Source: a virus
Lineage: Duplodnaviria; Caudoviricetes
Length of the DNA: 62,891 nt
Strand: one strand, 5' to 3'
IMG/VR virus record: IMGVR_UViG_3300027754_000089
Location: 1 to 62,891 of that record
The notes under the pieces: generated by a model
Told to the model about the DNA's origin: nothing
The model's input: only the letters and a program-made list of their open reading frames with translations
Databases searched by the model: none
In this document: one piece after another, positions 15,819 through 44,531 of the stretch
How the letters are laid out: the number at the start of each line of letters is the position of its first letter
Numbering within the stretch: the first letter of the stretch is position 1
Program-made: the position numbers and the translations under genes

Positions 15819-17936
15819 CTACGTTTTACGTAATCCCAGAGGGTCTAATTGTGCACCGGCTGTTGCGGTACCGCTGCTTATCCCAGCAGGTGTTGCCATT
15901 CTAAACGCTTGAAACGCTCTTTGCAAGAACTCATCTTGTTTTGCTCTTTGCATTTCTGGGGTCAAACTCATAGCATCCATTTTGTTTAAAGATTTAAGCC
16001 AATTGTCGTACATTACATCTGCTTGGTGCATTGCTTGCGCTGTATTGACTCCGCCAGATTCAAGATTTGACGCTTTAGCGTTGGCTTCTCTGGCCAAAGC
16101 CTGACGATACATGTCTTCGCGTTCAGTCTTTTGTTGCTCGCGTTTCATGGCAAGAGCGCCAAGTCCAGCTTCGCCCACAGCACCACCAATATTGGGGTTT
16201 TTGCTAGCCATTAAACCAAGACCAAACGCTACAAGGTCGTCGTCGCTCATGCCTTTGGCTTTCTTTGGCGTTAACTCTGCTTTAGCCGCTTCCATAAAGG
16301 AGTCTTTGGCTTTCTCAGGAATGCCTTGTTTAATTTCCCCATTGGGGCTCATGTCATCATCTCTTAGTGGCACTGGTGCAACTGGAGCAGTTTCTTCTGT
16401 GCCGGGTTCAACCAAAGGTTGATTCAAAGGACGCACTAAATTTCTAGCCGTTTCCTCATTAAAGCCTAACGACGTTCCTTTGCGACCACTGGGGGCGCTA
16501 GTGATAACCCTAGGTATTTGTGATACTGCATTTTTCATTTGCTCCATGTAAGGCATTTTGCTTGGGCCTTCGGGATTGTTTGCAGCAGCATCTTGAATAG
16601 CAGCCGCAAAACCAACATCGCCGCTCATGGCGCTCAACATAGGATTGTCTACCATTTCTTTACGACGGTTTGCAGGTAAAGTTTGCAAATCTTGCATTGC
16701 TTTATCAGTCAACATACCACCAATAACAGGGATAGCCGTTGCAACGCCAGCACCACGAATCAAACCGGGTACTCTACTGGCTGAAAAAGCTTCACGAGCA
16801 GTAGGTATCAAAGCAGAAGGTATTAGTGATTGACCTAAACCTGTACCAGTTGTGCCTTCTAAACTTGGCATTTTTTCTTTGTTTTGCAAAGAAGCAAGTC
16901 CCGCATCTTTATTTGGTAATTCCCCTGCATTGGCTGACGGCAAACCAAGCCCTGCCATTTTTAATTTTGTCCAGTTACGAAGATCTCCAACAGTTTTTTC
17001 TCCTTTACTGCCTAGCACTTCAGGATTAGCTTTAATAATTTCGTCTGCTCTTTTAGGAGTTGTATTTTTTAAAAACTCAGCAACTGTTTGTTTTGGATTG
17101 GCGGTTAATAGAGCTTTGCCAACAGGTTCCCCTAAAAAATGAGTTCCGTACAATTCGTGCGGTTCAGGAGCCCTGCCCAAAGATTTTTCCAAAGCCTTTT
17201 GATTTTTGCCAAGATATAAACCACCCAATCTAATTGCTTCGCCGGGATCATTGCGCAACGCTGGATCACCGCCTAAATCTTTGTATGTTTTATCAATAAA
17301 TTGAAAAAAGTTGGTAGCCGAAGATTTTGGATTTTTACCTGTTCCTTCTACGCCTGCAATCATTTGCATTACTTTTGGATCTACCCCATTGGCTATAGCA
17401 GAATCAATCATCATTTGACGATAGTCAGGTTTAGCTTTAACAGCCCCTTGATCCGCAAAATGTGCAACACCGCCAGCAGCCATACTTCTTGGGGTCACAC
17501 CACTGTCGGGATGCAAGTCAACTGCGGGAGCCATCTGAGCATAGTTAAACATGCCCGGTTGTTGGGGGCCGCCATCGGCATAACCCGCGATACCACCATC
17601 AGCCATGTGCTGTAAGTTGGGAGCGTTTAGTGCTCCAATGCCTTGGTTCTCAGGTAATACAGTACCGCCGTGTGCATAGCCTGTGGCGTTGCCCATCATA
17701 TCCACATTAGGCATAGACCCTACGTCAGCTACAGCCGCTTCATTGACTTTAGGAGGCATAGCTCCAGCCATTCTCGCTTGTGCAGCACGGCGCATTTCTT
17801 TACGGCGTGAGTCTTCCGAAATAATAAACGGAAGCACATAAGGATCATTTTTGTGCATCATCGCCATCTGCTTCAATGCCATATCAGGCATCATTGCAAT
17901 TCCAGATGTAAGTTTTTGTGAGTTGGGTAGTGCCAT
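15819..17936 (-). CDS. Ejection protein with lytic transglycosylase (SLT-like) domain
   Basis: IAGVE...SSATNFFQFIDKTY...LYGTHFLG lysozyme-like motifs; position among ejection genes. Confidence 0.7.
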   Translation of the reverse strand: MALPNSQKLTSGIAMMPDMALKQMAMMHKNDPYVLPFIISEDSRRKEMRRAAQARMAGAMPPKVNEAAVADVGSMPNVDMMGNATGYAHGGTVLPENQGIGALNAPNLQHMADGGIAGYADGGPQQPGMFNYAQMAPAVDLHPDSGVTPRSMAAGGVAHFADQGAVKAKPDYRQMMIDSAIANGVDPKVMQMIAGVEGTGKNPKSSATNFFQFIDKTYKDLGGDPALRNDPGEAIRLGGLYLGKNQKALEKSLGRAPEPHELYGTHFLGEPVGKALLTANPKQTVAEFLKNTTPKRADEIIKANPEVLGSKGEKTVGDLRNWTKLKMAGLGLPSANAGELPNKDAGLASLQNKEKMPSLEGTTGTGLGQSLIPSALIPTAREAFSASRVPGLIRGAGVATAIPVIGGMLTDKAMQDLQTLPANRRKEMVDNPMLSAMSGDVGFAAAIQDAAANNPEGPSKMPYMEQMKNAVSQIPRVITSAPSGRKGTSLGFNEETARNLVRPLNQPLVEPGTEETAPVAPVPLRDDDMSPNGEIKQGIPEKAKDSFMEAAKAELTPKKAKGMSDDDLVAFGLGLMASKNPNIGGAVGEAGLGALAMKREQQKTEREDMYRQALAREANAKASNLESGGVNTAQAMHQADVMYDNWLKSLNKMDAMSLTPEMQRAKQDEFLQRAFQAFRMATPAGISSGTATAGAQLDPLGLRKT

Positions 17937-17940
17937 TTTA

Positions 17941-18948
17941 TTAACCCATGTTATAGATTGCTAACTCTGCTAAACCAGCAGGACGTTTGACTGCACCGCC
18001 TTCAGCAAATAAACCAAGGCCTTTGGCAGCAATACCCGCACCAGCAACTTGCCCTAGCATAGAAGGGGGCGCTTGATACACACTGCCTGTACTCTGGGCC
18101 ATTGGAAGACCGCGCAAGATATCGGACATAAAACTGATTTGCTTGTATGGGTTGTTCTGGTAGTTCAAGAAGTCTTGATACTGATTGTTCAACTGGTTTT
18201 GAACTTGCTGTTGCTGTACGCCACCATACTGCGCTTGTTGCGCGTTGATGCCCATGTTTTGTTGGTACTGCTGATTGCCAATGCCAGCTAAGTTTGAAGC
18301 GGCAGTATTGGCTGCTTGAAGACCTTGAAGCCCAAGACCTGCACCAAACTGTTGCTGTTGAGCATTGAGTTGGTTCTGGGTGTTGTATTGAGTTTGCGCT
18401 TGGTTGTACGCATCAAATTGATTTTTGGCTAAATTGCGTTGAAGGTCAGCGTTGTTTTGCGCGCCCATAATGGCTTGACGCCCACCACCAAACGCACCGC
18501 CTAATGTGGCTTGTGCATTATTTTGTGCATTTTGGATACCCGCATTTCTATAAGCTGCCGCATCCATGACGCCTGTAAAAGGATTCATCATGCTGTTGCC
18601 AGTTATATTACCCTTTGCGTCTTTAATATTGGCGTTGCTAAACGCGGTGTTGAAATTAGATGGGCTAAACGTGTATTGTTGATTAAGAGCCCCAAGACCT
18701 GCCATACCCGCAAGAGCTGTTGCATCTTGCAACTGCGGTGCAGTTTGCATAGTAGCCGCATTGCCAAACGCTTGTTGCTGTAGGGGCGTGAACTGCGCTA
18801 CCCGGTCTCCCATATACTGTTGATAATCAACATTAGGATCTGTAATAGCTCGGGCATTCCCGATCATGTTTTCTACATCCGCTTTAGCGTAGTCGGGGAT
18901 GGTTGTGTAATTTGTTGTTTGTTGTACAAATTGTGGATCTGATGCCAT
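17941..18948 (-). CDS. Gln/Asn/Gly-rich ejection (DNA pilot-like) protein
   Basis: GAFGGGRQAI motif, Q-rich low complexity, synteny. Confidence 0.65.
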   Translation of the reverse strand: MASDPQFVQQTTNYTTIPDYAKADVENMIGNARAITDPNVDYQQYMGDRVAQFTPLQQQAFGNAATMQTAPQLQDATALAGMAGLGALNQQYTFSPSNFNTAFSNANIKDAKGNITGNSMMNPFTGVMDAAAYRNAGIQNAQNNAQATLGGAFGGGRQAIMGAQNNADLQRNLAKNQFDAYNQAQTQYNTQNQLNAQQQQFGAGLGLQGLQAANTAASNLAGIGNQQYQQNMGINAQQAQYGGVQQQQVQNQLNNQYQDFLNYQNNPYKQISFMSDILRGLPMAQSTGSVYQAPPSMLGQVAGAGIAAKGLGLFAEGGAVKRPAGLAELAIYNMG

Positions 18949-18957
18949 GATTCTTCC

Positions 18958-21639
18958 TTATACGGGTAAGTATTTAGCGGCATTGGTATTGGTTGCCACT
19001 TGCTTTTTGCCAGTTGTTTTTGCGCGTGCGTTCTGTACACGATCCATCATTGCGTAAAGCTTACGAGCACCTGCTTCAGTAGAACCATTTCCTATTTCAG
19101 ACACAATGCGCGCAGGCACCACAAACTCACCATCAGCAAGGCGTGCAGGCTGACGATTACCAATAGAAGCAGGAATAGAATCAGAGACACCATCCCCCGG
19201 GCCACGGAGCAAGCGACCGCCATCAGAGTAGCCGCCTAAAGAACCCAAACCGCCCATTGCCATGCCGCCATCTGCGTAAACTTGTGGGGGATTAAAGTTA
19301 AATTTGCCTGTTGTTTTTGAAAAGAATGGATGACGCGCAGTACCGCCACGAGCCATGCCTATTAAACCGCCGTTAGCACCATGCACGGCTTCAAACTCAC
19401 TGGCTGTATTTGCAACAAGCTTACCGTTAGCGTCATAGTAACGACCATCAACCCCAAAATAAAATCCGGGGTAGTCTTTTAACTGTGTTGCAGTTTTAGG
19501 AGGTGTCCCATTTGCACCGGGAACTGAAATTGTTTTAGTGCTTAAAGAAGGCGCAGCACCAGATGCAGTTTTAGACGCTGCGTTTGCAGCCACGCTAGGG
19601 TCATAGTTTGGATTGGGGATTCTTTTATGTGTTACTGGATCAAAAATTTCTTTTACGTCAGATGCGTAAATTTTTTCATCTGGTTTAAGACCTAAGACCG
19701 CTTCCATATATGACTTAGATACTTTTGACGCCGATGTTTTAAGAGGTGCTGTGCCTTGACCTGTTAAAAAATTATATGCAGCAAAAGAGTCCCCAGTCAT
19801 CGTATTGAACTGTTTGTTTGCTTCCTCCGGTGTCTTAGGCGCTTTAGGAAAATAACCGGGGCTACCGCCACCTGCTGTCCAAGCATCTGTAACTTCACCT
19901 AGGCCCGAGAATCCAGCATAAGGGCGAGCGGGTAGGTTTGGTGTTACAGATACTGTTTTATCCGCATTGAGTGTTAGATCACCGGGATTATTTTTATTAC
20001 CGTATGGATTGCTTGTGCCAACAGGTGCGTTGGTTTGTGGGTTTGTTGGTAATTGCGTAACTGTTTTAGGCAACGCAATAATGCCGGGGCCACCGCCACC
20101 AGTTCCGGTAGGAGCCGCACCGATAAGAGGAGCAACGGGAGGAACACCGGTAGAGGGAGGAGGGGAAGCACCGAGAGGATGCAGTTTAGCTTCTGCCGCA
20201 TCGTACCGTGCTTGTACTTGCGCTTCAGGAATTCCTGTGGTGCGTGATATTTCTTTGACGGTAATAGGATCAATTTTACCTGTTACAGGATCTTTATGCA
20301 CATCCATGTAAGACGCATATTGTTGATCGTAAGCACTTCCTAAATTTGCCAATGGTGTGGCGGGGCCTTGGTATGCACCTAACAAAGTTTTTTCTTTGCT
20401 ATAGTCTTGTGCTAAATTAAATCGGTCTAAAAAATCCGCTTGACTTAAACCGATTTGACTAGCCAAATTTGGTGATGATGTGGGCGTAAGCCCTAAATTT
20501 TGCATTTGTCTATAGTAAACTTCGTCGCTTGCATTAGGTTGTGTGTTTACAAAATTAACAAATTGAGTGGCGGCAGTAGGAGACGTTGCAGAAGCCGCAG
20601 CAGTATTGCCATAAGTTAAAGCGCCAATATCTCCTGTATAACCAAGAGCTTGTGCAACTTGTTGTGCTTGCGTTGAGTTTTGAATTCCATAACTGTTTAC
20701 AACATCTTGAGCACTTGTACCGGGAGCAAATCCAGATCGTCCGGCTTCAATAGCGCCTGCCACATCAAAGCGACGCACACCATTTTCAATCCGCCCGCCT
20801 TGAGCTAGTGCCACGATACCGCCTGTTGCAGCGGTAGCGGGTTGTTGATAGATGTCTGAGAAGTTACGGCTACCCCATTCGCTAGCCTTGACCGCAGGCA
20901 AATCAATCATGTGATGCGTTACAGGATCGTAAATCTTTTGGCGAATGTATGCAGGGTTTACTGGGGCTGGTGTAGTGGTTTTTACGCCTTGGTCAGCTAA
21001 CATTGGAGATACTGCCATTAAACCGGACGCAGCGTTATTTTTAGCAAAAGTTCCTAAATCGCCGGGAGTTGCAGTTACGGCGTTATATCCGCCAGCAAGC
21101 TTGTCCATCTGAGGCATAGCGTTAAGTTGTGCTGTTACGCTTTCACCTAAAGCTCCGGGATTGTTTAGAAGATGCGCTTTGTATGCTTCTGATCCAACAT
21201 CTGTGCCTAAACCAGCCGCAAGTCCTTGTTCTGCACTAGCAAGTGCTCCGGGTGCAGCGGCTTGTGTTCCCGCAGCGGCTAAATTTCCAGCTATGTCTGC
21301 CCCGCCGTAAGCACCCAATCCAGCCATAAGTCCACGAGACAAACTACCCGTTGCCAGAGTCATAATGCCGCCAGTAGCAACACCTGCCATCATTGACGAT
21401 AAACCAAATCCAGCGGGGCCAAGCAAAGCACCCAATGCCATAGGTGCGGCGGCTTTAAGTACGTCGTCTAAAAAGCCAGCTTCGGGTAAACCCGTATGTG
21501 GGTTGATTGTTAAATCCCCACCTTTGGCGTGAGCAAGGCTACGCAATCCAGCAACTTCGCTGGGCGTCATGTGCACAAGCATTTTGTCGTTGCCACGACC
21601 TTGTTGCGCTAAGTGATTGGCTACGTGTTGGAGACTCAT
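18958..21639 (-). CDS. Ejection/internal virion protein with tape-measure-like GPGDGxSDSIPA...GEFVV C-terminal module
   Basis: N-terminal GRGND.MLVHM...TINPHTGLPE motif, hydrophobic Gly/Ala segment, recognisable C-terminal module. Confidence 0.65.
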   Translation of the reverse strand: MSLQHVANHLAQQGRGNDKMLVHMTPSEVAGLRSLAHAKGGDLTINPHTGLPEAGFLDDVLKAAAPMALGALLGPAGFGLSSMMAGVATGGIMTLATGSLSRGLMAGLGAYGGADIAGNLAAAGTQAAAPGALASAEQGLAAGLGTDVGSEAYKAHLLNNPGALGESVTAQLNAMPQMDKLAGGYNAVTATPGDLGTFAKNNAASGLMAVSPMLADQGVKTTTPAPVNPAYIRQKIYDPVTHHMIDLPAVKASEWGSRNFSDIYQQPATAATGGIVALAQGGRIENGVRRFDVAGAIEAGRSGFAPGTSAQDVVNSYGIQNSTQAQQVAQALGYTGDIGALTYGNTAAASATSPTAATQFVNFVNTQPNASDEVYYRQMQNLGLTPTSSPNLASQIGLSQADFLDRFNLAQDYSKEKTLLGAYQGPATPLANLGSAYDQQYASYMDVHKDPVTGKIDPITVKEISRTTGIPEAQVQARYDAAEAKLHPLGASPPPSTGVPPVAPLIGAAPTGTGGGGPGIIALPKTVTQLPTNPQTNAPVGTSNPYGNKNNPGDLTLNADKTVSVTPNLPARPYAGFSGLGEVTDAWTAGGGSPGYFPKAPKTPEEANKQFNTMTGDSFAAYNFLTGQGTAPLKTSASKVSKSYMEAVLGLKPDEKIYASDVKEIFDPVTHKRIPNPNYDPSVAANAASKTASGAAPSLSTKTISVPGANGTPPKTATQLKDYPGFYFGVDGRYYDANGKLVANTASEFEAVHGANGGLIGMARGGTARHPFFSKTTGKFNFNPPQVYADGGMAMGGLGSLGGYSDGGRLLRGPGDGVSDSIPASIGNRQPARLADGEFVVPARIVSEIGNGSTEAGARKLYAMMDRVQNARAKTTGKKQVATNTNAAKYLPV

Positions 21640-21672
21640 ATTTTCCCCGTAAATAAGTTAGAGTTTATCATA

Positions 21673-26233: not shown

Positions 26234-27340
26234 TTATTTGTTCTCCAATGCTGTTACTTTTGCGCTGAGTTCTTGAATTGCTTTAATGCAAAGAGAAACC
26301 ATGTTGCCATAAGCCAAAGCATCAGGCAAACCATCTTCTGCGTATTGCACAAATTCCGTCAAACCAACAGCATGGACTTCTTCGGCAATTAAACCGCCAA
26401 AAATTGTTTCGCCATCGTTTTCGCTTTTGCCTTTATAAGTAACTGGGCGCAGTTGCAATACTTCCGCAAGACCATGTGTTGCTTCTTCAATATTTTTTTT
26501 GTACTTTAGTGAAGATGTTGAACGATAAAAATTACCACCTGAATCAATATATACATTTGCTCCACTACCGCTTGTAGTGTTATAAACCTGTGGAACTCTT
26601 AAGTCACCACCAGTAGTAATAACTAACCTAGGATTCCCATCCCCATCAGACAGCACGATGTAGTTGCTTGCTGTGCGAATGTCTAAACTACCTTGGTTGC
26701 CGTTGTAGCCACCAAGAATGGTGTTATTTGCGCCAGTAGTCATAACCCCACCAGCATAATACCCAATAAAAGTATTTTTTGCGCCTGTTGAAGCATAACC
26801 AGCTTGGTCACCCATCATGGTGCAATAACTTGCGTTGCTTGTATATCCAGCTTGTCTACCTACGTAATTTGATTGCACTCCCGTGGTATTTGTATACCCC
26901 GCTTGATAACCTACTGCTGTGTTGTTTGATGCTGTGTTGTAGCGTAATGCTTGTTGTCCAACGGCTATGTTGTAATTGCCTGATACATTGTCATATAAAA
27001 CAGATGTTCCTACTCCAACATTTCCCGCACCAGTAGTTGTAACTCGACCAGCATAAGCACCAATAAAATTATTGCTATCACCTGATGTAATTGCATTGCC
27101 AGCACTATATCCAATAGCAACAGTTAAGCCACCAGTATTTGTGGCAACTTGTGCTAAATTGCCTAAAACAGTATTGGTAGCGACAGAACCAGCACCTTGA
27201 CCAATAGTCAATCCATGAATAGTTGAGTCAGCAGATGTTGTAATAGATGTTACAGAAGGCGTTGATGTAAACGCAGTTGTCTGCGTAGTCGCATCTGAAA
27301 AGGTGATGCTAGGACTTGAACCCGAAATAACTGTGGTCAT
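26234..27340 (-). CDS. Tail fibre/spike with C-terminal intramolecular chaperone (peptidase S74)
   Basis: NxAxG beta-helix repeats; SSLKYKKNI...LRPVTY...GLIAEEV. Confidence 0.85.
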   Translation of the reverse strand: MTTVISGSSPSITFSDATTQTTAFTSTPSVTSITTSADSTIHGLTIGQGAGSVATNTVLGNLAQVATNTGGLTVAIGYSAGNAITSGDSNNFIGAYAGRVTTTGAGNVGVGTSVLYDNVSGNYNIAVGQQALRYNTASNNTAVGYQAGYTNTTGVQSNYVGRQAGYTSNASYCTMMGDQAGYASTGAKNTFIGYYAGGVMTTGANNTILGGYNGNQGSLDIRTASNYIVLSDGDGNPRLVITTGGDLRVPQVYNTTSGSGANVYIDSGGNFYRSTSSLKYKKNIEEATHGLAEVLQLRPVTYKGKSENDGETIFGGLIAEEVHAVGLTEFVQYAEDGLPDALAYGNMVSLCIKAIQELSAKVTALENK

Positions 27341-28269: not shown

Positions 28270-29520
28270 TTATTTCCCTTCAAGAGCAGTTATACGCTCT
28301 GTTAGTGATGTAATTGTTGCTGATTGTGCTGTGACTAAAGCAGAGAGTTCTTGGATTGCTGATGTAAGAGTAGCCACCAAGAATGATGTGTCTACGCCTT
28401 GATAAACTGGCACGGTGCGTGTACCCATGACGGCAGGGGTTGTGATGTTGCCCTCTTCGTCTTTAACTGCGGGAGTGACTTCGTACTCTTCTTCACGGGT
28501 TCCATCTTTAGAACCATGAACGCACTCAGGTACTATTTCTTGTAATTCATGGGCGATGAAACCTTGACCATCTGAACCGTCAACATTCCATTTGTAAGTA
28601 ACGGGCTTTAGTAAAGCAACTTTAGCTAATGCGCCTGTCATTGGTGCAATGTTTTGTTTTAAACGATAGTCAGATGATGTGTTGTAAGAAGTGCTTGAGC
28701 CACTTGTATAAATAGCACCTACGCCGCTATTACCATTGAAAAACTCCATCATTGGCTGACTGCCTGTTCCAGTTCTACCACTTTGAAAAATGCCTGATGC
28801 CGTTATTCTTCCGTAACTTGTTGTTGGAGGAACTGCATATTGCCCACCTACTTGAAGGTTTTGACTAGAGTCTATACGCATGGCTTCTGTATTGTTTGTA
28901 GCAAATTTTAAATTTGCTGATTCGTAATTGTTAATAAGTGCATCAGTACCACCCATTTCAATTAACAAACCATCAGAATTACCAGTCCCCGTTGAACTGT
29001 TATGCACTCTTAATGAAGGATAAGATGGACTATATACTCTTATACTAGTGTTTGAAGTACCTTGTACATCTAGCCCATAAGCAGGACTACTTGTACCTAT
29101 ACCTACATTGCCACTAATGGGGTTGAGCAACAAACTTGTGTAAGTAGCCCCTCCAGCAGAATCTTGTACTTGCAATCCTTTAAATCCACTTGCAGTACCA
29201 GTAAAGTTTAAAGAGTAGCCAGTATTGTCTCTAATCTTTGCTTGGGAAGTTGTGTCAGACGCATATGTAGATAAAACATCAAATTTAGCCAAAGGCGAAG
29301 TTGTACCTATACCTAGATTTGTTCCTGTAAAAGTAAGCGCAGTCCCAGTAGTCAAAGCACTTGTACTTGTAGCGTATGCTACGCCATTCGTTGTGAACCC
29401 TGCTCCTGATGTTTGTATTGTTCCAGTTTCAGCAGGCAGAGTAATTGTGTACGTCCCTGTTGCCGATGGAGTGATTGTGGTACTTCCACTCGAAGAACCC
29501 GCTAAGACTAAATTTCCCAT
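28270..29520 (-). CDS. Tail fibre with S74 chaperone domain
   Basis: GNVGIGTSSP repeats; SSDYRLKQNI...GFIAHELQ. Confidence 0.85.
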   Translation of the reverse strand: MGNLVLAGSSSGSTTITPSATGTYTITLPAETGTIQTSGAGFTTNGVAYATSTSALTTGTALTFTGTNLGIGTTSPLAKFDVLSTYASDTTSQAKIRDNTGYSLNFTGTASGFKGLQVQDSAGGATYTSLLLNPISGNVGIGTSSPAYGLDVQGTSNTSIRVYSPSYPSLRVHNSSTGTGNSDGLLIEMGGTDALINNYESANLKFATNNTEAMRIDSSQNLQVGGQYAVPPTTSYGRITASGIFQSGRTGTGSQPMMEFFNGNSGVGAIYTSGSSTSYNTSSDYRLKQNIAPMTGALAKVALLKPVTYKWNVDGSDGQGFIAHELQEIVPECVHGSKDGTREEEYEVTPAVKDEEGNITTPAVMGTRTVPVYQGVDTSFLVATLTSAIQELSALVTAQSATITSLTERITALEGK

Positions 29521-33376: not shown

Positions 33377-33616
33377 TTAAGCCATTGGCCCTCTAGCCAT
33401 TAAACCTTTAGTTGCTGCACCTGTACCACGCACTTTGATGCCTGATGTTTTTACACCGGGATATTCATTGCTGTGGGTATTGGCAACAGACACGTTGGCG
33501 TCTTTCATGTATTTCTTGTTGCTTGGGCCAGTGGTCTCACTGATGCCCACTTTTTTACCGCTCATGGTGTGAGGGGCAGCATAAGCAGACGCAGGTAAAT
33601 TGTTGATCTTAGCCAT
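33377..33616 (-). CDS. Small basic late protein
   Basis: Ends RGTGAATKG; coupled to neighbour. Confidence 0.65.
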   Translation of the reverse strand: MAKINNLPASAYAAPHTMSGKKVGISETTGPSNKKYMKDANVSVANTHSNEYPGVKTSGIKVRGTGAATKGLMARGPMA

Positions 33617-33816
33617 TATCGACCCCTTCCGGTATTGCGTTGATTGGCTGCACGAGCCATGTTGCGACCCATTGTCATCATCGCTTTACTTGTAACACCA
33701 CCAGCGGCAAGCTTGAGTTTGGTACCCTTACCGCCTTTATGCTCTTGCGAGTCGTGCTGTTTAAAGGCTTTTTTAATCATAGCCTTGTCTTGTTTCGTGT
33801 CTTCTTTGTCCATCAT
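33616..33816 (-). CDS. Small basic late protein
   Basis: AGGAG RBS; contains LAAGG. Confidence 0.65.
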   Translation of the reverse strand: MMDKEDTKQDKAMIKKAFKQHDSQEHKGGKGTKLKLAAGGVTSKAMMTMGRNMARAANQRNTGRGR

Positions 33817-34212: not shown

Positions 34213-35159
34213 TAAGAGCCACCACCGATGTACATCTGTCTAGGCACAAACCTGACAGCCGCTTTCTCTTGATCCTCCTGGGCCGCATTGTTCCAAGCCT
34301 CGTCATATTGAGACTTTAAAACCGTCAAACGCTCCAAACCATTTGGTACTTTAAGCGCAATGTAGTAAGCCAAGCCAGCGGCTAGGCAAGGAATGAACCT
34401 GAACGGTACATCCATCGTGTTTACACCGTTGCCAGCGTCTTGCAAACGACGCATACGCCAATAAACCAACTGGTAGGACTGTGACCCATCAGGAGTTGGC
34501 CAAACGGTCACGCTTTGCTTCTGAGAGTAGTAGATCAAGTCGCCAACACTGTGTGCGGCGGCTGTTGTATTGCTTTGACCACGTACACAATTCAAAAGAT
34601 ACGCTGGCGCAGTAGATGTGGCCGCTTGATACTCGTTAAATGCTATCAATTCAGTACCAATTTTGATAAAACCTGCGTTGGGCACGTTGACCAAGGAGGT
34701 AATTGGGATGGAAGTGGTTGTTGTGGTGATTGCCGCTTGCAAAGTGCCCGGCAAAAGGGACTCTTGTGCAGATAAACGCTGAATCCATATCTGGATGGGG
34801 CGTCCTTGCGTTAATTTGTTGGGGATTGTGGCGTAAGTGGATACGCTGATACGCGTAATGGTCAAATCTGACTGATTACTGGTGTTGTTTGCGTTGGTTC
34901 TGATGACATGTTCCAACAAATCCACCGTATCGTCAGGCAAAGCATAGGTTGGCTGGCCTTGAACAAGCGTAATCATGTCTTGCTCAAACGTCCACATGTT
35001 GACACCACGGTTTGCCCAGTCAGCAAACATTAAATTCATCGACCTGCGGGCAGTTCTAAGGTCATAACCCGTACGCATCTCAGAACCCGCACGCTCAAAC
35101 GCCTCTTCCACCATCTCAGAAAGGTCAAGATTGAAAGCAGAAACGCTTGAAGTGGTCAT
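34212..35159 (-). CDS. Head completion/adaptor protein (P22 gp4-like position)
   Basis: EEAFERAG...TARRSMNL...WPTPD...AGLAYY. Confidence 0.7.
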   Translation of the reverse strand: MTTSSVSAFNLDLSEMVEEAFERAGSEMRTGYDLRTARRSMNLMFADWANRGVNMWTFEQDMITLVQGQPTYALPDDTVDLLEHVIRTNANNTSNQSDLTITRISVSTYATIPNKLTQGRPIQIWIQRLSAQESLLPGTLQAAITTTTTSIPITSLVNVPNAGFIKIGTELIAFNEYQAATSTAPAYLLNCVRGQSNTTAAAHSVGDLIYYSQKQSVTVWPTPDGSQSYQLVYWRMRRLQDAGNGVNTMDVPFRFIPCLAAGLAYYIALKVPNGLERLTVLKSQYDEAWNNAAQEDQEKAAVRFVPRQMYIGGGS

Positions 35160-35356
35160 TATTTTTTACTTTTTTTAGGTTTCCACCCAACTGGGGTCAT
35201 ACCCACGGGTTCTCCTGTTTCAGAAAACCGCATGTACTGCGCCGTCTTTCCGCCTTTAGCATACTGGGTAAAGTCAGTGTCATCCCGGCGAGCTTTCTTA
35301 GCGCCTTTGGGCATTTTGGAAGGGAGAATGTCTCCCATACCGCGTGAGGCTATCAT
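35159..35356 (-). CDS. Small basic late protein
   Basis: MIASRGMG..., contains YAKGG. Confidence 0.65.
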   Translation of the reverse strand: MIASRGMGDILPSKMPKGAKKARRDDTDFTQYAKGGKTAQYMRFSETGEPVGMTPVGWKPKKSKK

Positions 35357-35359
35357 GGT

Positions 35360-35731
35360 TTAACCAGCTTTGCCGCCGTGCTTCATGCCTAAAGGAGTGC
35401 TGCCAGACATTTTAATCATGGTGCCTTTGGTTTTGCCTTTGGTAGCAAGACCATCACGGCTAGGAGAAGCAGTTTTTACAGAACCCATTTTTGCGGAAGT
35501 CATTCCACCGTTTGCCATTTTGCTCATACCTTTTTTCTTAGCCATCATTGCCATGAAGCCGGGGTTCATTTTAGAAGCCATAGTATCACCACCTTTTGAG
35601 AATTTTTTGCCTTTATCGGCGTTGTTAAAATCTTGTCCCACGGATTGCGGAACTCCTACCTTCTTTGCAAAAGCTGGATTATGAGCAATTGCTTCCATAA
35701 AACGATGCTGTTTGCCACTTGTACTTGGCAT
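35360..35731 (-). CDS. Small basic Met/Lys/Gly-rich late protein
   Basis: Start MPSTSGKQ overlaps upstream stop; three xxxGG motifs. Confidence 0.7.
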   Translation of the reverse strand: MPSTSGKQHRFMEAIAHNPAFAKKVGVPQSVGQDFNNADKGKKFSKGGDTMASKMNPGFMAMMAKKKGMSKMANGGMTSAKMGSVKTASPSRDGLATKGKTKGTMIKMSGSTPLGMKHGGKAG

Positions 35732-35904
35732 TACTTTCTCCAAGCCTTAACCGTATCGGTTTCCCAAATACGTAAGCACAACCACACAATGGTCAGTACA
35801 CCACCAACAAGACCCACTACAGGGGGGAACCACTCCATAAAACCACCTAATCCTACGACTACTGCGGCTCCATCAGCCATTACTTTTACATCGTGATTGT
35901 CCAT
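35731..35904 (-). CDS. 57-aa two-TM membrane protein (not in ORF track)
   Basis: MDNHDVKVMADGAAVVVGLGG...LTIVWLCLRIWETDTV; coupled on both sides. Confidence 0.7.
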   Translation of the reverse strand: MDNHDVKVMADGAAVVVGLGGFMEWFPPVVGLVGGVLTIVWLCLRIWETDTVKAWRK

Positions 35905-36248
35905 TATATGTACCTGCCTTTGGTTTTGCCCCGCTGGGCTATCCCATCAGCGCGGCTAGATGCAGTTATTTTTCCACCTTTACTCATAGGCACAGAGTAA
36001 TATCTGCTTCCACGTTTTTCAATTTTAGAGCCTCTATTTTTTTCTGCTGCTTCGGCTTTATTAAAGGTTTCATGTTGTTTGCCTTTTAAAACAACATAAC
36101 TGTTTTCTGGCAAATCATTTGCAATTCGTTCATCATCGGATGTTGGAGCGACAGACCCCCAGTGCTCACTTTTTTTCTTGGGCTGCATGTTGTAGGCTTT
36201 TGCTGTTTCATAATCAAAATCACTGCCTTCTGGGTCAAATGTAGCCAT
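35904..36248 (-). CDS. Hypothetical protein with C-terminal MSKGG...RADGIAQRGKTKG tag
   Basis: AT-rich unique body plus shared C-terminal motif. Confidence 0.7.
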   Translation of the reverse strand: MATFDPEGSDFDYETAKAYNMQPKKKSEHWGSVAPTSDDERIANDLPENSYVVLKGKQHETFNKAEAAEKNRGSKIEKRGSRYYSVPMSKGGKITASSRADGIAQRGKTKGRYI

Positions 36249-36249: not shown

Positions 36250-36495
36250 TCAACAATTCCAAGCCCGCAGGCTTTTGTTAATCCGGCTGTTTGGGTCTTT
36301 CGCTGTTTTCTCTGAAGTCAACTTCGCTTTCATGCCTGACATTCTTGCACAGAATGACTTCTTCCTTGATCCGCCCTCTGGTTGGGGAGGCTTTAAATTC
36401 ATCCCCTCCTTCTTTGCGGATGCCCGACCTTTGGCGTTTAAACCGCCTTTCGGATTCTTTCCTTCTTTGCGTTGCCATGCTGGGGACTTAGCCAT
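36250..36495 (-). CDS. Small basic late protein
   Basis: GGLNAKGRAS...RKKSFCARM...SLRAWNC. Confidence 0.7.
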   Translation of the reverse strand: MAKSPAWQRKEGKNPKGGLNAKGRASAKKEGMNLKPPQPEGGSRKKSFCARMSGMKAKLTSEKTAKDPNSRINKSLRAWNC

Positions 36496-38376: not shown

Positions 38377-38389
38377 TTTATATTACTCC

Positions 38390-39253
38390 TTATACACCAG
38401 TAGTATTGTTCATGCTATGGAAGTTTCCGTTCCATGTCACTAATACTTCAGGGAAGCCAACAAAACTCACTGATTGTGAGGCAATAGTAACTGCGGAGTT
38501 TAAAGTCAATGTTGTTGAATTGACGTTAGTGACCGTAATATAGTTACCTTGAGCACATCCAGTACCTGTAGCAATTACTTGCATACCAGCCAAAATTGCG
38601 CTGTTTGCTGCACCTAAAGTCAAGGTTGCTGAAGAACCTGAAGTAGAAGCAGTAGCAGAAACAACAACGGCGCTTTCAGAAACAACACCAATAACACGGA
38701 AAGGTGCTGCGGCTGTAACACGCGTGTTACCTGTACCGTTAGAAACAACACCACCTGTTAAGGCAAGGTATGAATCACCAGTAGTTGTAGAACCAAGGTT
38801 GGCTGTCAATGGGTACATATTACTACCAACAAAAGCTGGGTTCACATAACCGACAGTTACGTTGAGTGTATTAGCCAGAGAAGTAGCTTGACCAGCAACA
38901 ACAGCTTTAAACACAACGCGAGGATCATCAATTACGTAAGCAACAGCATTGTTTGATACGGTACTTGCAGGCCAGTATTGACTCTGAATGATTTGACCCA
39001 TTGAGTTTGTATATTGGCAACCAAGAAAAACACCTATCGTACCTGCAATTGCGGCAGTGGGACTTGATGCGGCAGAATAGCTACATGTAACAATTGAACC
39101 ATTTGCGGTCAACTGAACAATATCGCCATAGTACAAATTGGTACCGTAACCAGTAGCAATAGTGTACATACTGGTGGAACCAACATATGCTAAACCACCA
39201 TACTCTTTCAGTGGTTTTAGCCCGTAGGGGGCTGAGACGCTTGGATAAGCCAT
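38390..39253 (-). CDS. Capsid-associated (cement/decoration) protein
   Basis: Directly upstream of capsid; APYGLKP...GVFLGCQY. Confidence 0.65.
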   Translation of the reverse strand: MAYPSVSAPYGLKPLKEYGGLAYVGSTSMYTIATGYGTNLYYGDIVQLTANGSIVTCSYSAASSPTAAIAGTIGVFLGCQYTNSMGQIIQSQYWPASTVSNNAVAYVIDDPRVVFKAVVAGQATSLANTLNVTVGYVNPAFVGSNMYPLTANLGSTTTGDSYLALTGGVVSNGTGNTRVTAAAPFRVIGVVSESAVVVSATASTSGSSATLTLGAANSAILAGMQVIATGTGCAQGNYITVTNVNSTTLTLNSAVTIASQSVSFVGFPEVLVTWNGNFHSMNNTTGV

Positions 39254-39269
39254 TTAAGGACTCCTTAAG

Positions 39270-39722
39270 TTATTTAGAACCAGAACCAAACCCAGATCCG
39301 CGACTGACTGTTGACTTGCGGTCAGAGAACAGCGGCATCCTTGGATCATTGTTTCGCATAAAGTGATTGTCAACTGAGTCCATCTGATTTTGCGCTTGTT
39401 TGTTGAAATACTCGTCACGGGCTTTGGCTTGTTCAGAAGGTTGTTTGCATAGCATCAACCCACCAATCTCGACGTTGCCTGTCTTTTCATTCGCCTCAAG
39501 CATAAGCTCTGGATGGTCTACTGCCTTCACTGGCACCCAGCCATCGCGCATCTTACGAGACACGTTGGTTGGATCGGCTTGTCCCATAATATGCGTCGCT
39601 ATCCAGCGATAGACATATCCGGGTTCCGGTGTCGGATCGGGCAGTGTGCTCGATGGTGTATATACATACCGAGCGTTTTTGTCGCGTGAAGTTGTGTCAC
39701 GATTTGATCTGTTATCAGCCAT
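39270..39722 (-). CDS. Head morphogenesis protein, function unknown
   Basis: GYVYRWI...GWVPV...GGLMLCK; position between scaffold and capsid. Confidence 0.65.
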   Translation of the reverse strand: MADNRSNRDTTSRDKNARYVYTPSSTLPDPTPEPGYVYRWIATHIMGQADPTNVSRKMRDGWVPVKAVDHPELMLEANEKTGNVEIGGLMLCKQPSEQAKARDEYFNKQAQNQMDSVDNHFMRNNDPRMPLFSDRKSTVSRGSGFGSGSK

Positions 39723-40659
39723 TTTGAGCCTCCAATTTAGCTACTTGTGCAGCGTATTGCTGCGGGGTTAATCCAAACTTTTTTGCCAACGCAACTTGCG
39801 TGGTAGTTAGTTTGACCTTTCCTGCGGACGTAGAACGACCAGCAGGCGCAACAACAGTTGAGGGCCGTCTATTGACTTCAACAGATTTTTTGTCTTCAGA
39901 ACCACCGAATACTTCAGGGAACTTCGACTTTATGCGAGCATCAATTTGCTCGAAATACTCATCATTGCGGGGGTCTACACCTCCGTTGACTAGTTTTTGA
40001 TGCAGTCCTAGTGCGTAACTGGTAACTTCCTCAAACCCCGATGCACCAAACCACTGGTTTTTTGCCTGCCAGCGCAGTGACTTTTCGTCTGGTTGAACCT
40101 TTTGAGGTTGGGTATACTGCGTTTGTACCTCATTCCTTTCCTCTTGTAAAGGGGGAACACGATAATTTTTTACAGTTTCTAGTTGCATTTTAGCATCAGT
40201 CAAGGCTTCTTGAGCTGCAATGATGGCGTCTGTGTCAAATGCTTCTTGAGCTTCTTTGTATTGTTTGCGAGCCAACGTAAGGTCTGCTTCTGCTTTTTCC
40301 TTAGCGGAACTAACAAATGCTTCTTGCCCTACATTAACGCTCTTTTTAAGACTTTTATTCTCGTCTATCAGTTGTTGTGCAAGACGCTCAAGTTCTTGTC
40401 GCTCACGTTCTACCGAGTCTGCTCTACGGCGTTCATCATGTCTAGCGTGTGTCAACTCTTTGATACGTTTTTTAACACCGTCTGAATAACTGTCAAGTTC
40501 GTCATCGCTTGGGTCTTCAACTTCCCTGTTCAAGGGCTGGCGGCCACGATCACGTTCAGGGGTATCGTCAACAATTTCAATATCAACGTCTTCACCTTCA
40601 ATTTCGATGTCAATCTTTTTGTCTTCGATTTCATCGGGAAACTTGAATTTATCTTCCAT
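39715..40659 (-). CDS. Capsid scaffolding protein
   Basis: Acidic N-terminus, coiled coil, C-terminal LTTTQVALAKKFGLTPQQYA helix. Confidence 0.75.
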   Translation of the reverse strand: MEDKFKFPDEIEDKKIDIEIEGEDVDIEIVDDTPERDRGRQPLNREVEDPSDDELDSYSDGVKKRIKELTHARHDERRRADSVERERQELERLAQQLIDENKSLKKSVNVGQEAFVSSAKEKAEADLTLARKQYKEAQEAFDTDAIIAAQEALTDAKMQLETVKNYRVPPLQEERNEVQTQYTQPQKVQPDEKSLRWQAKNQWFGASGFEEVTSYALGLHQKLVNGGVDPRNDEYFEQIDARIKSKFPEVFGGSEDKKSVEVNRRPSTVVAPAGRSTSAGKVKLTTTQVALAKKFGLTPQQYAAQVAKLEAQNG

Positions 40660-40668
40660 GATTTTCCT

Positions 40669-41103
40669 TTAAGCGCGGGTAATCCCACGAGGGTCTTGCA
40701 CAACACATTCAACTTGGTCATCATTGATTACTCTGAATTCCTTGCCAAATATCTTCAATCGCGTACCTGTGTAGGTACGTACCACCACGAAATCCCCTTG
40801 TTTGCACCAAGGCCCACTAGGAAATTTAGCTGTGTCTTTATAGGCGTCTTCTCCTAGCGCCATGACAAACAGCGTGGTTGTACCCATCTGTTCTTGTTTG
40901 GCGTAGTCCATAGGACGCATTAAATCTAACTCCGTGCCATCTAATTTGTTAGATATGTCAGGCACGACGCAGAGTATTTTGTACCCTGTTGGAACGGGCA
41001 AAGCCGTTGCTCTATCTTCTATAGGTATGTCTTCATCAGGCATATCCATAGGAAAAATTTGTTCAGGCAGGCTTACGCCCGGTGGAAGAATAAGATCACT
41101 CAT
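40669..41103 (-). CDS. GroES-like co-chaperonin
   Basis: PTGYKIL...GPWCKQGDFVV..YTG..KIFGKEFRVINDDQV. Confidence 0.8.
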   Translation of the reverse strand: MSDLILPPGVSLPEQIFPMDMPDEDIPIEDRATALPVPTGYKILCVVPDISNKLDGTELDLMRPMDYAKQEQMGTTTLFVMALGEDAYKDTAKFPSGPWCKQGDFVVVRTYTGTRLKIFGKEFRVINDDQVECVVQDPRGITRA

Positions 41104-41290
41104 TGGCTTTTTCAACTTTCTCAAGCAGGTCAATTAAATAACGCTCTGCAATGGCTAGACCCGAAATAACACCACAGAGTTTTTGATATTCATCGAAAGT
41201 GCGACATTGACCCCCAGCGATATCATCGCAATAGTTGTTCATGTCGGTGCGTATTTGTTCGCGCAATACGCGTGCGAAGTCTTGGATCAT
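41096..41290 (-). CDS. Small hypothetical protein
   Basis: AAGGAG RBS; YQKLCGVISGL. Confidence 0.7.
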   Translation of the reverse strand: MIQDFARVLREQIRTDMNNYCDDIAGGQCRTFDEYQKLCGVISGLAIAERYLIDLLEKVEKANE

Positions 41291-43797
41291 TTAGGTACTT
41301 TCTCCTTTGGTTGCCGCGTGTTTGCGGCATGTTGAAGCGCAGTGGTTCTTGCTTGTAACTCCATCTGTGCTTTATTCTTGGCAATGTCAGCGCCCATTTG
41401 GACGCCCATTCGTTCTTGTTCAGATTGAGCTTTGGCTTGGCTTTCTTTGATTTGCGCGCCAACACGTAAGGCATCCAACTCCAACTGACCTTGAACTTTC
41501 TGTTCTTCAAGCTTTTGCTTGTCTGCGTCTCTTGCCAAATCTCCAGTAATCTTGATACCTTTGAGTTCAACTTCTTTCTGACGAATAGCCAAGTCTTGTT
41601 GTTGCATCTGCACCAAAGGATCCTGCATCTGTTGCTGGGCTTGCTGTTGTGCCGCTTGTGCCTGATCTTGTTGCAACACTTGATTGGCCGCTTGCGCCAT
41701 CATGGAAGACAGAGCCAACTCCAACTGTGGTGAAAGCTTCTCGTCTTCGGGAGGCATAGGCATACCCAACTGTTGCTCCACTTTTTGCCTGTACATATAT
41801 CCAGCATGTTCAGCCATATGCGCTTGTACAGCAGCCATCATTTGTTGCGCCATTGGGTTTTGTCCAATCACTTGCATGATGGCGGGGTTCTGCATCAAGG
41901 ACATGTGTACGCTGATATGCGCTTGGTGATCCTGATACATAAACGCTTTTAGGGGTTTACCTTTAAGAGCCTGCATATTCTCAGACACGGGGTCTGTTGG
42001 TTTCTGGTCATCTGGCAGGGGCACAAGCTTCTCAGCATTCTTAATGCCCAACACATCCAACATTGACCTGTGCAACTGTGGCAAGTCATAAATTTGAGGC
42101 GCCATCTGCGCCATCTGGATCACGGCCTGATACTGCACCACGCGTTGACTCATCGTTGCGGCATTTGGGTCACTTACGGGAATGACGTCCACCAAGTCGT
42201 AATCTTCCTTCTTGGCTTTCTTTGAACCATACTCAGGCTCATACGTGTAGGAAGTATCCGTGTAATCCCGTATGAGGTTTTTGATGAGCTTTAACTCTTG
42301 CTTTAAAGCAAAGTGCACACGCGCTTGGACTGCGGTCAATACTTTCAACTGGCGCTCAAGGAGGGCAAGCGTTGTACCTACAGGTGCTTGGCTAGACATG
42401 TCACTGATGTTCATGTCTGCTGTTGCCGCAAATCTTCTGCCTTCTTCAACAATCTGGTTCATCAAATTGAACAGTACGTTGCTAGGTTCTTTGTAAGGCA
42501 GCGGTAAGATTGAGTCTCTGATGTTGCCAGATGCAACGTCTACGTCCCTGAACTCACCCGGGGCAATCGGCGTGTCATCACCCTTGATGCGAAGTCCTCG
42601 GGACTTAAGACCGCCGGGGAGATTGGAGAGGGTGCCTGCATCAACAAGTTGACGCATAATGCTTGTAGCGGATTTGGCAAATCCTCCAATGAGGTGAAAG
42701 AGTCCAAAGCCATAGGCTCCAAAGCCGGGGATGTATTGGTAGTGGACAAAGTGTTGTCGTTTGAGTTTGAGCTCATCTCCCTCTTCCCAGTTCCGCCTAA
42801 TAGATAAGACTTCATTGCTTCCTTTGATTAGGGTTACGACGTATGGTAAACCAATGCCGGTCTCTTCGCCATCTTCATCTTCGTCTTTGTAGCCTTCCAA
42901 GTCCAAGTCAACGTGGCACTCATACAAAGTGTAGCGGTCATCGTTTAAGTCGCTAAAGCCTGTCTCTTTGTCCTTGGCTTGCTTGATGTCGTTTCTTTCT
43001 TTTGTAGGTTCTGCTAACTCTACGTCAAGATAGAACCCTGCTTGCTGTAGTTTAAGAATTTCGTTCTTGGTTTTCCTCATCACATGCGTTACACGGTAAC
43101 AAGTGTCCATGTCTGTTGCGCCATATGGAAGCAGCATGTCCTCCGCAGGCACAAACACACTGACCTGACGGCCAAGACCGGGATCGTAGTAGACTTTCTT
43201 AAACGCAGAACCCGTGGCTGGGAGACTCCACAGCATCCTTTCATGTTCGGGACGGAACTCTTTCATGGTCTCCGTCAGCTCATAATTCATGTCGTTCTCG
43301 ACATTGGTGGCTTTTTCTTTTAACTCTGGCGTCTCTTTACCCAATAGTTTGGTACGTACTGGCCCCTGTGCAGGGAATGTTTCTGTAATGGTCTCGGCTT
43401 GGAAGCGCACAACGGCCTCAGTAATCATAGGGTGGAACACGCCACACGCGCCGTCCCAAGGTTCTGTCCGGTTCTCAATCTGTAACCCAAGAAGCTTTAG
43501 TCCTTCTGTGTAGGCTTTCTCCCACTCTTTACGCGAACCACGGTCTTGGTCAATGTCAGAGTCCAAATCTCCTGCCAAAGAAGACAAAGCGCCTTCGTCC
43601 ATGTACTCGGCCAAGTTATCGCCAAAGCCTTCTTCATCGTCTTCACCGGGTTTGAGCTTGATCTCCATGTCCCCCGCTTTGATGCTGACTTCTTCAGGAT
43701 CAACGATCTCAATCTCTAAAGGTTCTTCTTCCTCAGCCAAAGCGTCTATGCCTTGCGGTGCTTGATACAGGGATTTGTCAAAATTACTTGTTGCCAT
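41287..43797 (-). CDS. Portal protein (P22-like, long Q-rich C-terminal barrel)
   Basis: 836 aa after terminase; GSAFKKVYYD; Q-rich coiled-coil tail. Confidence 0.88.
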   Translation of the reverse strand: MATSNFDKSLYQAPQGIDALAEEEEPLEIEIVDPEEVSIKAGDMEIKLKPGEDDEEGFGDNLAEYMDEGALSSLAGDLDSDIDQDRGSRKEWEKAYTEGLKLLGLQIENRTEPWDGACGVFHPMITEAVVRFQAETITETFPAQGPVRTKLLGKETPELKEKATNVENDMNYELTETMKEFRPEHERMLWSLPATGSAFKKVYYDPGLGRQVSVFVPAEDMLLPYGATDMDTCYRVTHVMRKTKNEILKLQQAGFYLDVELAEPTKERNDIKQAKDKETGFSDLNDDRYTLYECHVDLDLEGYKDEDEDGEETGIGLPYVVTLIKGSNEVLSIRRNWEEGDELKLKRQHFVHYQYIPGFGAYGFGLFHLIGGFAKSATSIMRQLVDAGTLSNLPGGLKSRGLRIKGDDTPIAPGEFRDVDVASGNIRDSILPLPYKEPSNVLFNLMNQIVEEGRRFAATADMNISDMSSQAPVGTTLALLERQLKVLTAVQARVHFALKQELKLIKNLIRDYTDTSYTYEPEYGSKKAKKEDYDLVDVIPVSDPNAATMSQRVVQYQAVIQMAQMAPQIYDLPQLHRSMLDVLGIKNAEKLVPLPDDQKPTDPVSENMQALKGKPLKAFMYQDHQAHISVHMSLMQNPAIMQVIGQNPMAQQMMAAVQAHMAEHAGYMYRQKVEQQLGMPMPPEDEKLSPQLELALSSMMAQAANQVLQQDQAQAAQQQAQQQMQDPLVQMQQQDLAIRQKEVELKGIKITGDLARDADKQKLEEQKVQGQLELDALRVGAQIKESQAKAQSEQERMGVQMGADIAKNKAQMELQARTTALQHAANTRQPKEKVPK

Positions 43798-43805
43798 GAT
43801 TGTCC

Positions 43806-44531
43806 TTAAATTAATTTAGTGCGACCGCCTTGACGGTAGTTGTCTGGCAATGTTATTGTAGGGCCTTTGCCTCTTGTAGCTTCTAACAATTCCATTTCAT
43901 TGCCGCCCAACGTCCCCGGAGTTAAACCCAAAGGTAAAAAACTCTCACCAATATCTCTAGCGGCTTTTCTGTATTCTCCTGCGCTTGCTGCGCCCGCACC
44001 GCCAAGTAAAGCGGCTGCTACGCCCGCTTTACCACCTAAACCTTTTAGTCTTTCTGGTCTAGGATGTACTTCAGTAATAGCATTACCCCAATGTATATTT
44101 TTACCTGATGAACCTACGGGGCTTTCGCTTCCATAAATTTCTACGGGATGTAAACCAACTTTTGGTTGTACTGCATAGGGCGCTTGCACCATTGTTGTTC
44201 CGGCTTTTTTAGGGCCGTAGTCCTCCATTAACTGTAAAGCCACCTTGCCTGTGGGCTTTCCGTTTTCTAAAACGGGGACAAATTTTGTACCCATTTCTGC
44301 ATTTTGATATAAGCCAGCTATATTGTTAACATCTTTTGGATCCATGAACACCGTTTTTACAGAACGCGGTTGAACGCCTGTAGAAGTATCTTTGTGATTT
44401 GCACCACTTCTGTTGCGTGTTGTTGTGCTATCTGTGTGGTGTGCGTAAGTAGAACCACGACCCGTTTTAAATACGGACGCTATATCATCTGTTCCTGTAG
44501 GTAACTTAAACAACGAATCATAATCAGCCAT
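43806..44531 (-). CDS. Hypothetical protein inserted between terminase and portal
   Basis: AT-richer; flanked by 17-bp direct repeats; ends YRQGGRTKLI. Confidence 0.7.
   Translation of the reverse strand: MADYDSLFKLPTGTDDIASVFKTGRGSTYAHHTDSTTTRNRSGANHKDTSTGVQPRSVKTVFMDPKDVNNIAGLYQNAEMGTKFVPVLENGKPTGKVALQLMEDYGPKKAGTTMVQAPYAVQPKVGLHPVEIYGSESPVGSSGKNIHWGNAITEVHPRPERLKGLGGKAGVAAALLGGAGAASAGEYRKAARDIGESFLPLGLTPGTLGGNEMELLEATRGKGPTITLPDNYRQGGRTKLI

Follow-up and report, generated by a model that had tools for sequence, protein, structure and literature searches.

A recurrent hydrophobic-x-x-Gly-Gly motif in ejection proteins and small basic proteins of an uncultured podophage and its relatives

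In phage T4, internal proteins are brought into the head, for ejection with the DNA, by a capsid-targeting sequence, one N-terminal peptide that the prohead protease later cuts off. Internal proteins of phages T7 (gp6.7, gp7.3 and the core proteins gp14-16) and P22 (gp7, gp20 and gp16) leave the capsid ahead of the DNA, one of them with an SLT domain. Elsewhere, FG-repeat nucleoporins act by many weak contacts, the adenovirus protease and the coronavirus papain-like protease use hydrophobic-x-Gly-Gly sites, and the African swine fever virus polyprotein has Gly-Gly-x sites. Here, we describe a pentapeptide of the type hydrophobic-x-x-Gly-Gly that recurs in three ejection proteins and several small basic proteins of an uncultured tailed phage. 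The DNA analysed is the complete 62,891-bp genome record IMGVR_UViG_3300027754_000089 (hereafter, the window). A literature search by motif strings gave no phage paper naming the motif among the listed hits. Comparison with related sequences indicates that it is real, selected and widespread.

All motif instances listed in an initial annotation of the window are present at the genes it named, and all carriers are encoded on the minus strand. The 893-aa tape-measure-like ejection protein (18958..21639) carries HAKGG at residue 37, AATGG at 270, LAQGG at 278, GANGG at 754, MARGG at 762, YADGG at 788, MAMGG at 793 and YSDGG at 804, in addition to a site at 587. The 705-aa ejection protein (15819..17936) contains YAHGG at 87, MADGG at 111, YADGG at 119 and MAAGG at 152, followed by a degenerate FADQG at about 159, and a 335-aa Gln/Asn-rich protein (17941..18948) contains FAEGG at 314-318 (17995-18009) near its C-terminus. 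Single copies occur in three small open reading frames (ORFs), namely LAAGG at 36-40 (33697-33711) of a 66-aa protein (33616..33816), YAKGG at 32-36 (35249-35263) of a 65-aa protein (35159..35356) and MSKGG at 88-92 (35973-35987) of a 114-aa protein (35904..36248). A 127-aa protein (35360..35743) has three, FSKGG at 48, MANGG at 76 and MKHGG at 120. Finally, a 241-aa ORF (43806..44531) carries YRQGG at 232-236, five residues before its end.

The motif is enriched in the late proteins, taken here as the 40 proteins with gene starts from 15.8 to 46.1 kb. Here, [MYFL][ASKR]xGG occurs 18 times compared to 3.94 +/- 1.96 expected from per-protein shuffles, and none of the 2000 shuffles reached 18. 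The stricter [MYF]AxGG was observed 10 times with 0.94 expected, while the Gly-Gly dipeptide alone was not enriched (94 vs 93.9). The remaining 39 proteins of the window contain one match to the degenerate pattern (1.82 expected). In these shuffles, composition, which the initial annotation had named as the explanation to be excluded by such controls, does not account for the frequency. The degenerate pattern was defined post hoc, after viewing the data, and we therefore added a scan over every exact pattern of the window. MA.GG ranked second of 8922 (P 2e-5), A.GG third of 4209 and Y..GG first of 4230; none of these patterns individually survived multiple-test correction, so that the window by itself is suggestive, not decisive. 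The decisive support comes from conservation in homologues. The motif had also been described as largely absent from portal, terminase, fibres and replication proteins. In the window, the large terminase carries YRQGG at residue 482 and the DNA polymerase FRAGG at residue 382.

To compare relatives, 100 related metagenomic loci were fetched and their ORFs called. The alignments revealed that motif columns are retained while flanking residues are variable, the motif being preserved even in regions of otherwise divergent sequence. Among the small proteins, the LAAGG column is kept in 46/46 homologues of the 66-aa protein and the YAKGG column in 60/60 homologues of the 65-aa protein. At the FSKGG, MANGG and MKHGG positions of the 127-aa family, 58, 60 and 39 of 60 members have motif-like residues, and 59, 60 and 58 have Gly-Gly. 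In the ejection proteins, [YF]SDGG is found in all 20 members of the 893-aa family, MA.GG-type motifs in all 11 listed members of the 705-aa family, and the Gly-Gly of FAEGG in 19/19 aligned homologues of the 335-aa protein, with the full motif in 12 of these. Counted over non-identical proteins of the 100 loci and compared with shuffles, observed and expected numbers were 27 and 2.3 for the 705-aa family, 21 and 4.1 for the 335-aa family, and 89 and 11.6 for the 893-aa family. For the small proteins they were 19 and 0.8 (33616 ORF), 31 and 2.6 (35159 ORF), 75 and 4.4 (35360 ORF), and 7 and 1.2 (35904 ORF). Enrichment across related genomes, the check proposed at the outset, is seen in the same seven families. 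By contrast, the motif does not exceed expectation in the other structural families counted in these loci (capsid, portal, the two adaptors, the fibres and the 744-aa protein), where it is at or below the expected number. Database relatives extend the picture: 120 longer relatives of the 127-aa protein contain 702 motifs (33.3 expected) and 120 relatives of the 893-aa protein contain 642 (82.7 expected).

The core consists of M, Y, F or L, followed by A (73% of ejection-protein sites) or by K, A or S (small proteins), any residue, and Gly-Gly. T, V or A is frequent two positions past the core, and the residue right after Gly-Gly is unconstrained. Around the motif, the ejection proteins have Gly-rich or acidic sequence, whereas Lys predominates in the small proteins. 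Copies per protein range from 1 to 11, and in the database relatives neighbouring copies are often 5, 8, 9 or 11 residues apart, the 5-residue spacing having been counted 32 and 15 times. Insertions and deletions in the alignments of the 893-aa family (A2) and the 127-aa family (A3) gain or lose units of spacer plus motif, consistent with the earlier observation that motif clusters border variable modules. Such a pattern of variable copy number, spacing and inserted or deleted units is typical of multivalent linear motifs. Selection is supported as acting at the protein level, with Gly codons at motif sites being GGC or GGT and synonymously variable. A nucleotide signal, such as an internal Shine-Dalgarno-like GGAGG, was rejected: at 19 sites, the Gly-Gly codons begin with GGC or GGT and never read GGA-GG.

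The carriers do not share a common domain. An all-against-all profile comparison of ten families yielded only two local matches, and domain homology was rejected as the source of the motif. One match (hhalign E 5.5e-7, 24 columns) joins the 35360 and 35904 proteins through a C-terminal DG-x-A-x2-GKTKG unit, and the other (E 1.4e-4) aligns a double motif in the 705-aa protein (residues 109-166) with one in the 893-aa protein (268-297). The other best inter-family alignments were short and insignificant, several of them centred on the motif itself. The description of the carriers as unrelated thus holds in that there is no homology beyond the motif, but it needs to be qualified by these two local similarities. 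The motif regions have no Pfam, NCBIfam or PDB sequence match. We ran AlphaFold2 with family alignments on two of them, both glycine-rich, and obtained no confident structure for either. For the C-terminal 170 aa of the 893-aa protein, the mean predicted local distance difference test (pLDDT) score was 54, and most of the motif array as well as most of the invariant segment scored below 50. The 127-aa protein had a mean of 60, with helices in residues 8-44 at 82-87 and the remainder at 46-59. A relation to double-glycine leaders of C39 export was not supported either, as the motifs are not N-terminal leaders and there was no C39 or ABC exporter match.

Within the ejection proteins, the motifs are concentrated in distinct segments. 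The Met-rich N-terminal 165 aa of the 705-aa protein contain its four motifs and FADQG (cluster at residues 87-161, 17454..17678). The SLT transglycosylase-like region, which had been said to start directly after MAAGG/FADQG, indeed begins at residue 168 (PHROG transglycosylase match, residues 168-295). The 335-aa protein matches a 'DNA ejection protein' family (phrog_4287, E 2.2e-13). The window has two separate genes for these proteins (15819-18948), whereas three relatives (L005:6728-9436, L008:2898-5567 and L010:8901-11627) encode fused proteins of about 900 aa in which the joint between the 335-aa and SLT parts is a motif-rich linker. The C-terminal array of the 893-aa protein (residues 754-808, 19216..19380, alignment A2) comprises GANGG, MARGG, YADGG, MAMGG, GSLGG and YSDGG, partly as tandem pentapeptides (YADGG-MAMGG-LGSLGG-YSDGG). 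It runs into a near-invariant module (YSDGG ... ADGEFVVPARIV ... LYAMMDR ..., 18961..19230) that resembles the 'GEFV' module of tape-measure proteins. The last ~90 aa have 63 invariant columns among 18 sequences in alignment A2, while other parts of the relatives diverge. Per locus, 8-32 of 62 codons of the module are changed synonymously and 0-7 non-synonymously. For this part, AlphaFold2 predicted one helix but no autonomous fold. The module is matched by at least 7995 database proteins, some of which contain inteins elsewhere (PF07591, PF14890).

The resemblance to tape-measure proteins was examined further. The initial annotation had pointed to similar motifs in the C-terminal part of lambda gpH, and these were indeed found: FATGG 733, YATGG 778, MRDGG 842 and FSGGG 847, four compared to 0.35 expected. 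The most widely kept piece of the gpH end, residues ~745-785, matches 1044 phage records. We aligned six tape-measure ends (A7), those of lambda gpH, N15 gp16, the T1-like phages KP36, BEK3 and A123, and Pseudomonas phage Cruim01. All six have F[AS]xGG upstream and YAxGG downstream of the core 'PAG-VH-GEFV ... G ... LY-LM'. The window module 'YSDGG ... PARLADGEFVVPARIVSEIG ... LYAMM' aligned with this core over 32 columns (hhalign E 4.4e-5, probability 69%), and with lambda alone at E 0.003 (probability 11%). The homologue of the 893-aa protein in Caulobacter phage GB2A (hhalign E 3.4e-13) was annotated by its depositor as 'tail length tape measure protein'. The module had no match to PF09718 (Tape_meas_lam_C) or any other Pfam or NCBIfam model at E up to 10, and no tape-measure family was among the Pfam matches of the whole protein. 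Taken together, homology of the short module is probable but unproven. Like the lambda-type ends, the 893-aa protein has a motif (YSDGG) upstream of the core, but it lacks the second one downstream.

Two further differences concern the setting of the module. The window protein has the motif amplified to 8-9 copies, with spread to other proteins, and it belongs to a podophage with no tail tube to measure, unlike the siphoviruses. The gene set is podophage-like, with SU10-type adaptors and no tail-tube or sheath match in PHROG and Pfam scans. The presence of a probable tape-measure end module in a phage without a tail tube suggests that the module serves ejection and not length measurement, and would point to a shared ancestry of ejection machinery. 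In lambda, residues ~690-817 of gpH, which span FATGG and YATGG, stay with the particle and are structurally unresolved according to the accessible text of PMC12617516, and only residues 818-849 are resolved in the gpH structure, as far as the accessible part of PMC10721106 goes.

The four small, very basic carriers are encoded between the capsid and adaptor genes and have isoelectric points (pI) of 9.4-10.7 with 18-24% Lys+Arg. Calculated values are 10.6 for the 66-aa protein, 10.2 for the 65-aa protein and 10.5 for the Lys/Met/Gly-rich 127-aa protein. The latter combines an N-terminal three-helix domain (residues 8-44) with its three motifs and a G-x4-GKTKG unit at residues 97-107, and has this unit in common with the C-terminal end of the 114-aa protein (DGIAQRGKTKG). 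In both proteins, the Walker-A-like G-x4-GKT(K/R)G string lies in an otherwise unstructured, Lys-rich tail. Longer relatives of the 127-aa protein repeat both units, the motif and G-x4-GKT(K/R)G, up to 11 times. A terminal Cys is found in 18/20 members of this family, while the window copy ends in Gly.

Two of the matches outside these seven families are probably incidental. The large terminase (44540..46069, minus strand) has [FY]R[QR]GG as a single site at residue 482 in its nuclease domain, inside the Terminase_6C match (332-480/486). It is kept in 11/11 homologues and absent from the HTVC023P and P22 terminases, and is probably intrinsic to the nuclease fold. The YRQGG of the 241-aa ORF between terminase and portal is an unconfirmed singleton and probably an incidental match. 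The ORFs called in the 100 loci include no homologue of this ORF, although the terminase is present in 12 of these loci. That the 241-aa ORF recently acquired a duplicate of the terminase end was rejected, as the YRQGG codons and flanks differ. Residues 18-156 of the ORF show weak similarity to an inner stretch of an 'endolysin' PHROG profile of 2185 positions.

The genome in the window is that of a podophage with a distant relationship to HTVC023P-type phages. No near DNA relatives of the genome were found in the phage collection, and closer relatives are numerous among metagenomic viral contigs. The portal shares 35-45% identity with its counterparts in Pelagibacter phages HTVC023P and HTVC027P, Planktothrix/Synechococcus phages Pag-Yong1 and MinM2, Roseobacter phages CRP-901 and CRP-902, and Caulobacter phages GB2A and RW. 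A SNF2-family helicase gene is broken by the record ends (62436-62891 and 1-1308, both plus strand), which indicates that the genome is represented by this linear record in circularly permuted form. The minus strand holds the genes from 46,685 down to 6,464, in the order large terminase (44540), 241-aa ORF, portal (41287), capsid protein (37468) and a run of small ORFs. These are followed by two SU10-type adaptors, two fibres (28270-29520 and 26234-27340, minus strand), each with a C-terminal Peptidase_S74 intramolecular chaperone domain, a 744-aa structural protein, and the 893-aa, 335-aa and 705-aa ejection proteins. Directly downstream of the ejection genes lies a 3114-aa protein with a C-terminal LPD38 domain of the polyvalent-protein type (6464-15808, minus strand). 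An 81-aa DUF6321 protein (36250-36495, minus strand) matches the C-terminal ends of several far longer PHROG families (up to 928 positions) and looks like a free-standing copy of a module built into large proteins elsewhere.

The reading we favour, tentatively and with somewhat less than even confidence, is that the pentapeptide is a short linear motif for multivalent docking, used by internal or ejected proteins that are unfolded, and that it was inherited from a tape-measure-type end module and amplified in this clade. As such a 'sticker', each copy would display a hydrophobic residue beside a Gly-Gly turn, through which unfolded internal proteins could bind a common site, either on each other or on the portal or exit channel. 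Proteins with the motif would be loaded together and then leave together with the DNA. Like the capsid-targeting sequence of T4, the motif is a short portable peptide on otherwise unrelated proteins, but it is internal or C-terminal and repeated, and PHROG and Pfam scans found no prohead protease. The order of the 893/335/705 block resembles that of the T7 and P22 ejection genes. By analogy with FG-repeat nucleoporins, the motif comes as short hydrophobic-plus-glycine units on disordered chains, variable in number and spacing, but its copies are far fewer and the consensus differs.

Several points weigh against this docking reading. The 3114-aa polyvalent protein, which would be the most obvious ejected cargo, has no motif among its 18 Gly-Gly sites. 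T7 gp13-16 and P22 gp7, gp20 and gp16 carry zero or one motif each, which is chance level, and enrichment is likewise lacking in two distant relatives, GB2A and HTVC023P (8 vs 5.6 in HTVC023P), so that the motif is not a general requirement for ejection proteins. GB2A and HTVC023P have no homologues of the small carriers at tblastn E 1e-3, and their lack of enrichment indicates that the amplification is specific to the clade of the window. Given the acidic or Gly-rich flanks in the ejection proteins and the Lys-rich flanks in the small proteins, one common site is not assured. The binding partner is hypothetical, a virion location of the small proteins is suggested by gene position only, and the homologues are related sequences, whose family counts are not independent events. 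The proposal of a cargo tag stands in part: portability and protein-level selection of the motif are supported, as is its restriction to the three ejection proteins plus a set of small basic head-block proteins, but the points above speak against a general cargo code.

Alternatively, the motifs could be processing sites at which a phage or host protease cuts at or beside Gly-Gly, during assembly or post ejection, which would free modules of the ejection proteins and shorten the small ones. We consider this unlikely, although the location of motifs at module borders, such as that preceding the SLT region, and in the linker of the fused 335-aa/SLT proteins would suit it. Adenovirus, coronavirus and African swine fever virus offer a precedent in that their sites, too, have a hydrophobic residue a few positions before Gly-Gly and occur in virion or core proteins, some of them small and basic. 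Moreover, the motif lies in the cleaved C-terminal region of lambda gpH (PMC12617516, accessible text). However, Pfam and PHROG scans found no protease family in the late region, in agreement with the initial annotation, which had recognised no prohead protease gene. The 'protease' PHROG matches of the capsid protein cover the capsid part only, and this 302-aa protein matches capsid profiles along its length, with no delta-like extension seen. Like that of T7 and P22, assembly here may do without a protease. In all called proteins, the same scans found no cysteine protease of the adenain or papain-like protease (PLpro) type, and the hydrophobic residue of the motif stands at -4 from the second Gly, one position farther than the -3 of adenain/PLpro sites, with motifs in close tandem. 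Cleavage within arrays of 5-11 residue spacing would give tiny peptides, a cut in the middle of the 65-66-aa proteins seems pointless, and the residue after Gly-Gly is not constrained. In T5, cleavage of the tape-measure protein takes place after R1127 instead of at Gly-Gly (PMC10038345, accessible text). The only peptidase-like Pfam match is encoded in the early region, where a putative metallopeptidase of 398 aa (52986-54182), combining DUF2201_N and a VWA-like domain, is followed by a weakly AAA-like ATPase (374 aa; pair at 52986-55331, plus strand). For a 314-aa head-block protein (39715), considered as a protease candidate, an ESM Atlas look-up was uninformative, giving only unnamed viral clusters.

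It is also conceivable, if doubtful, that the motif is a passive element without partner, in which a hydrophobic residue and a Gly-Gly turn form a hinge or elastic linker for unfolded storage, threading through the channel and refolding. The tandem pentapeptide arrays with their frequent 5-residue spacing, the glycine-rich location without structure in the models, the variable flanks and a resemblance to elastomeric Gly-rich pentapeptide repeats all fit such a linker. On the other hand, positions 1 and 2 are far more constrained than a hinge needs, single copies are strictly conserved in the 65-66-aa proteins, copies are far fewer than in true elastomers, whose consensus also differs, and the ejection proteins of T7 and P22 manage without the motif. 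For the small basic proteins only, motif and G-x4-GKT(K/R)G might instead act as phosphate-binding glycine loops coating packaged DNA, with the ejection-protein copies then being a separate, tape-measure-type feature. The high pI and Lys+Arg content of these carriers, their Lys-rich motif flanks and the conservation of the Walker-A-like string in the 35360 and 35904 families agree with this, but the identical core has acidic flanks in the ejection proteins (YADGG, MADGG, YSDGG), PHROG, Pfam and NCBIfam scans gave no DNA-binding family match, and this purely inferential proposal appears improbable. Hardly credible, lastly, is an artefact of Gly/Ala/Met-rich proteins combined with a post hoc pattern. 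Exact patterns in the window alone do fail correction, and with about four late-protein matches expected by chance, singletons such as the YRQGG of the 43806 ORF may be just that. However, composition-preserving shuffles never reach the observed count, homologues keep the motif columns while flanks vary, and in other sequences these families again show the motif at ~5 to 25 times the expected number, by which the chance explanation is already largely refuted.

If the motif is a docking or, alternatively, a processing signal, it would provide a sequence rule for predicting small phage proteins that accompany the DNA into the host. Among uncultured phages, such a rule would concern a very widespread group, to judge from the number of database proteins with the associated module. 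The occurrence of the motif in the cleaved, structurally unresolved C-terminal region of lambda gpH would make its role directly testable in a model phage (PMC12617516, accessible text). A bolder extension, which we regard as quite unlikely, is that the motif constitutes a portable recognition code of the ejection apparatus, read by one site or enzyme that also acts on glycine-rich tape-measure ends such as that of lambda gpH. If this were true, any small protein gaining the pentapeptide would join the proteins that are injected along with the DNA, through either recruitment or processing, and this would explain how the motif spread, in thousands of phages from the environment, to small basic proteins that are unrelated.

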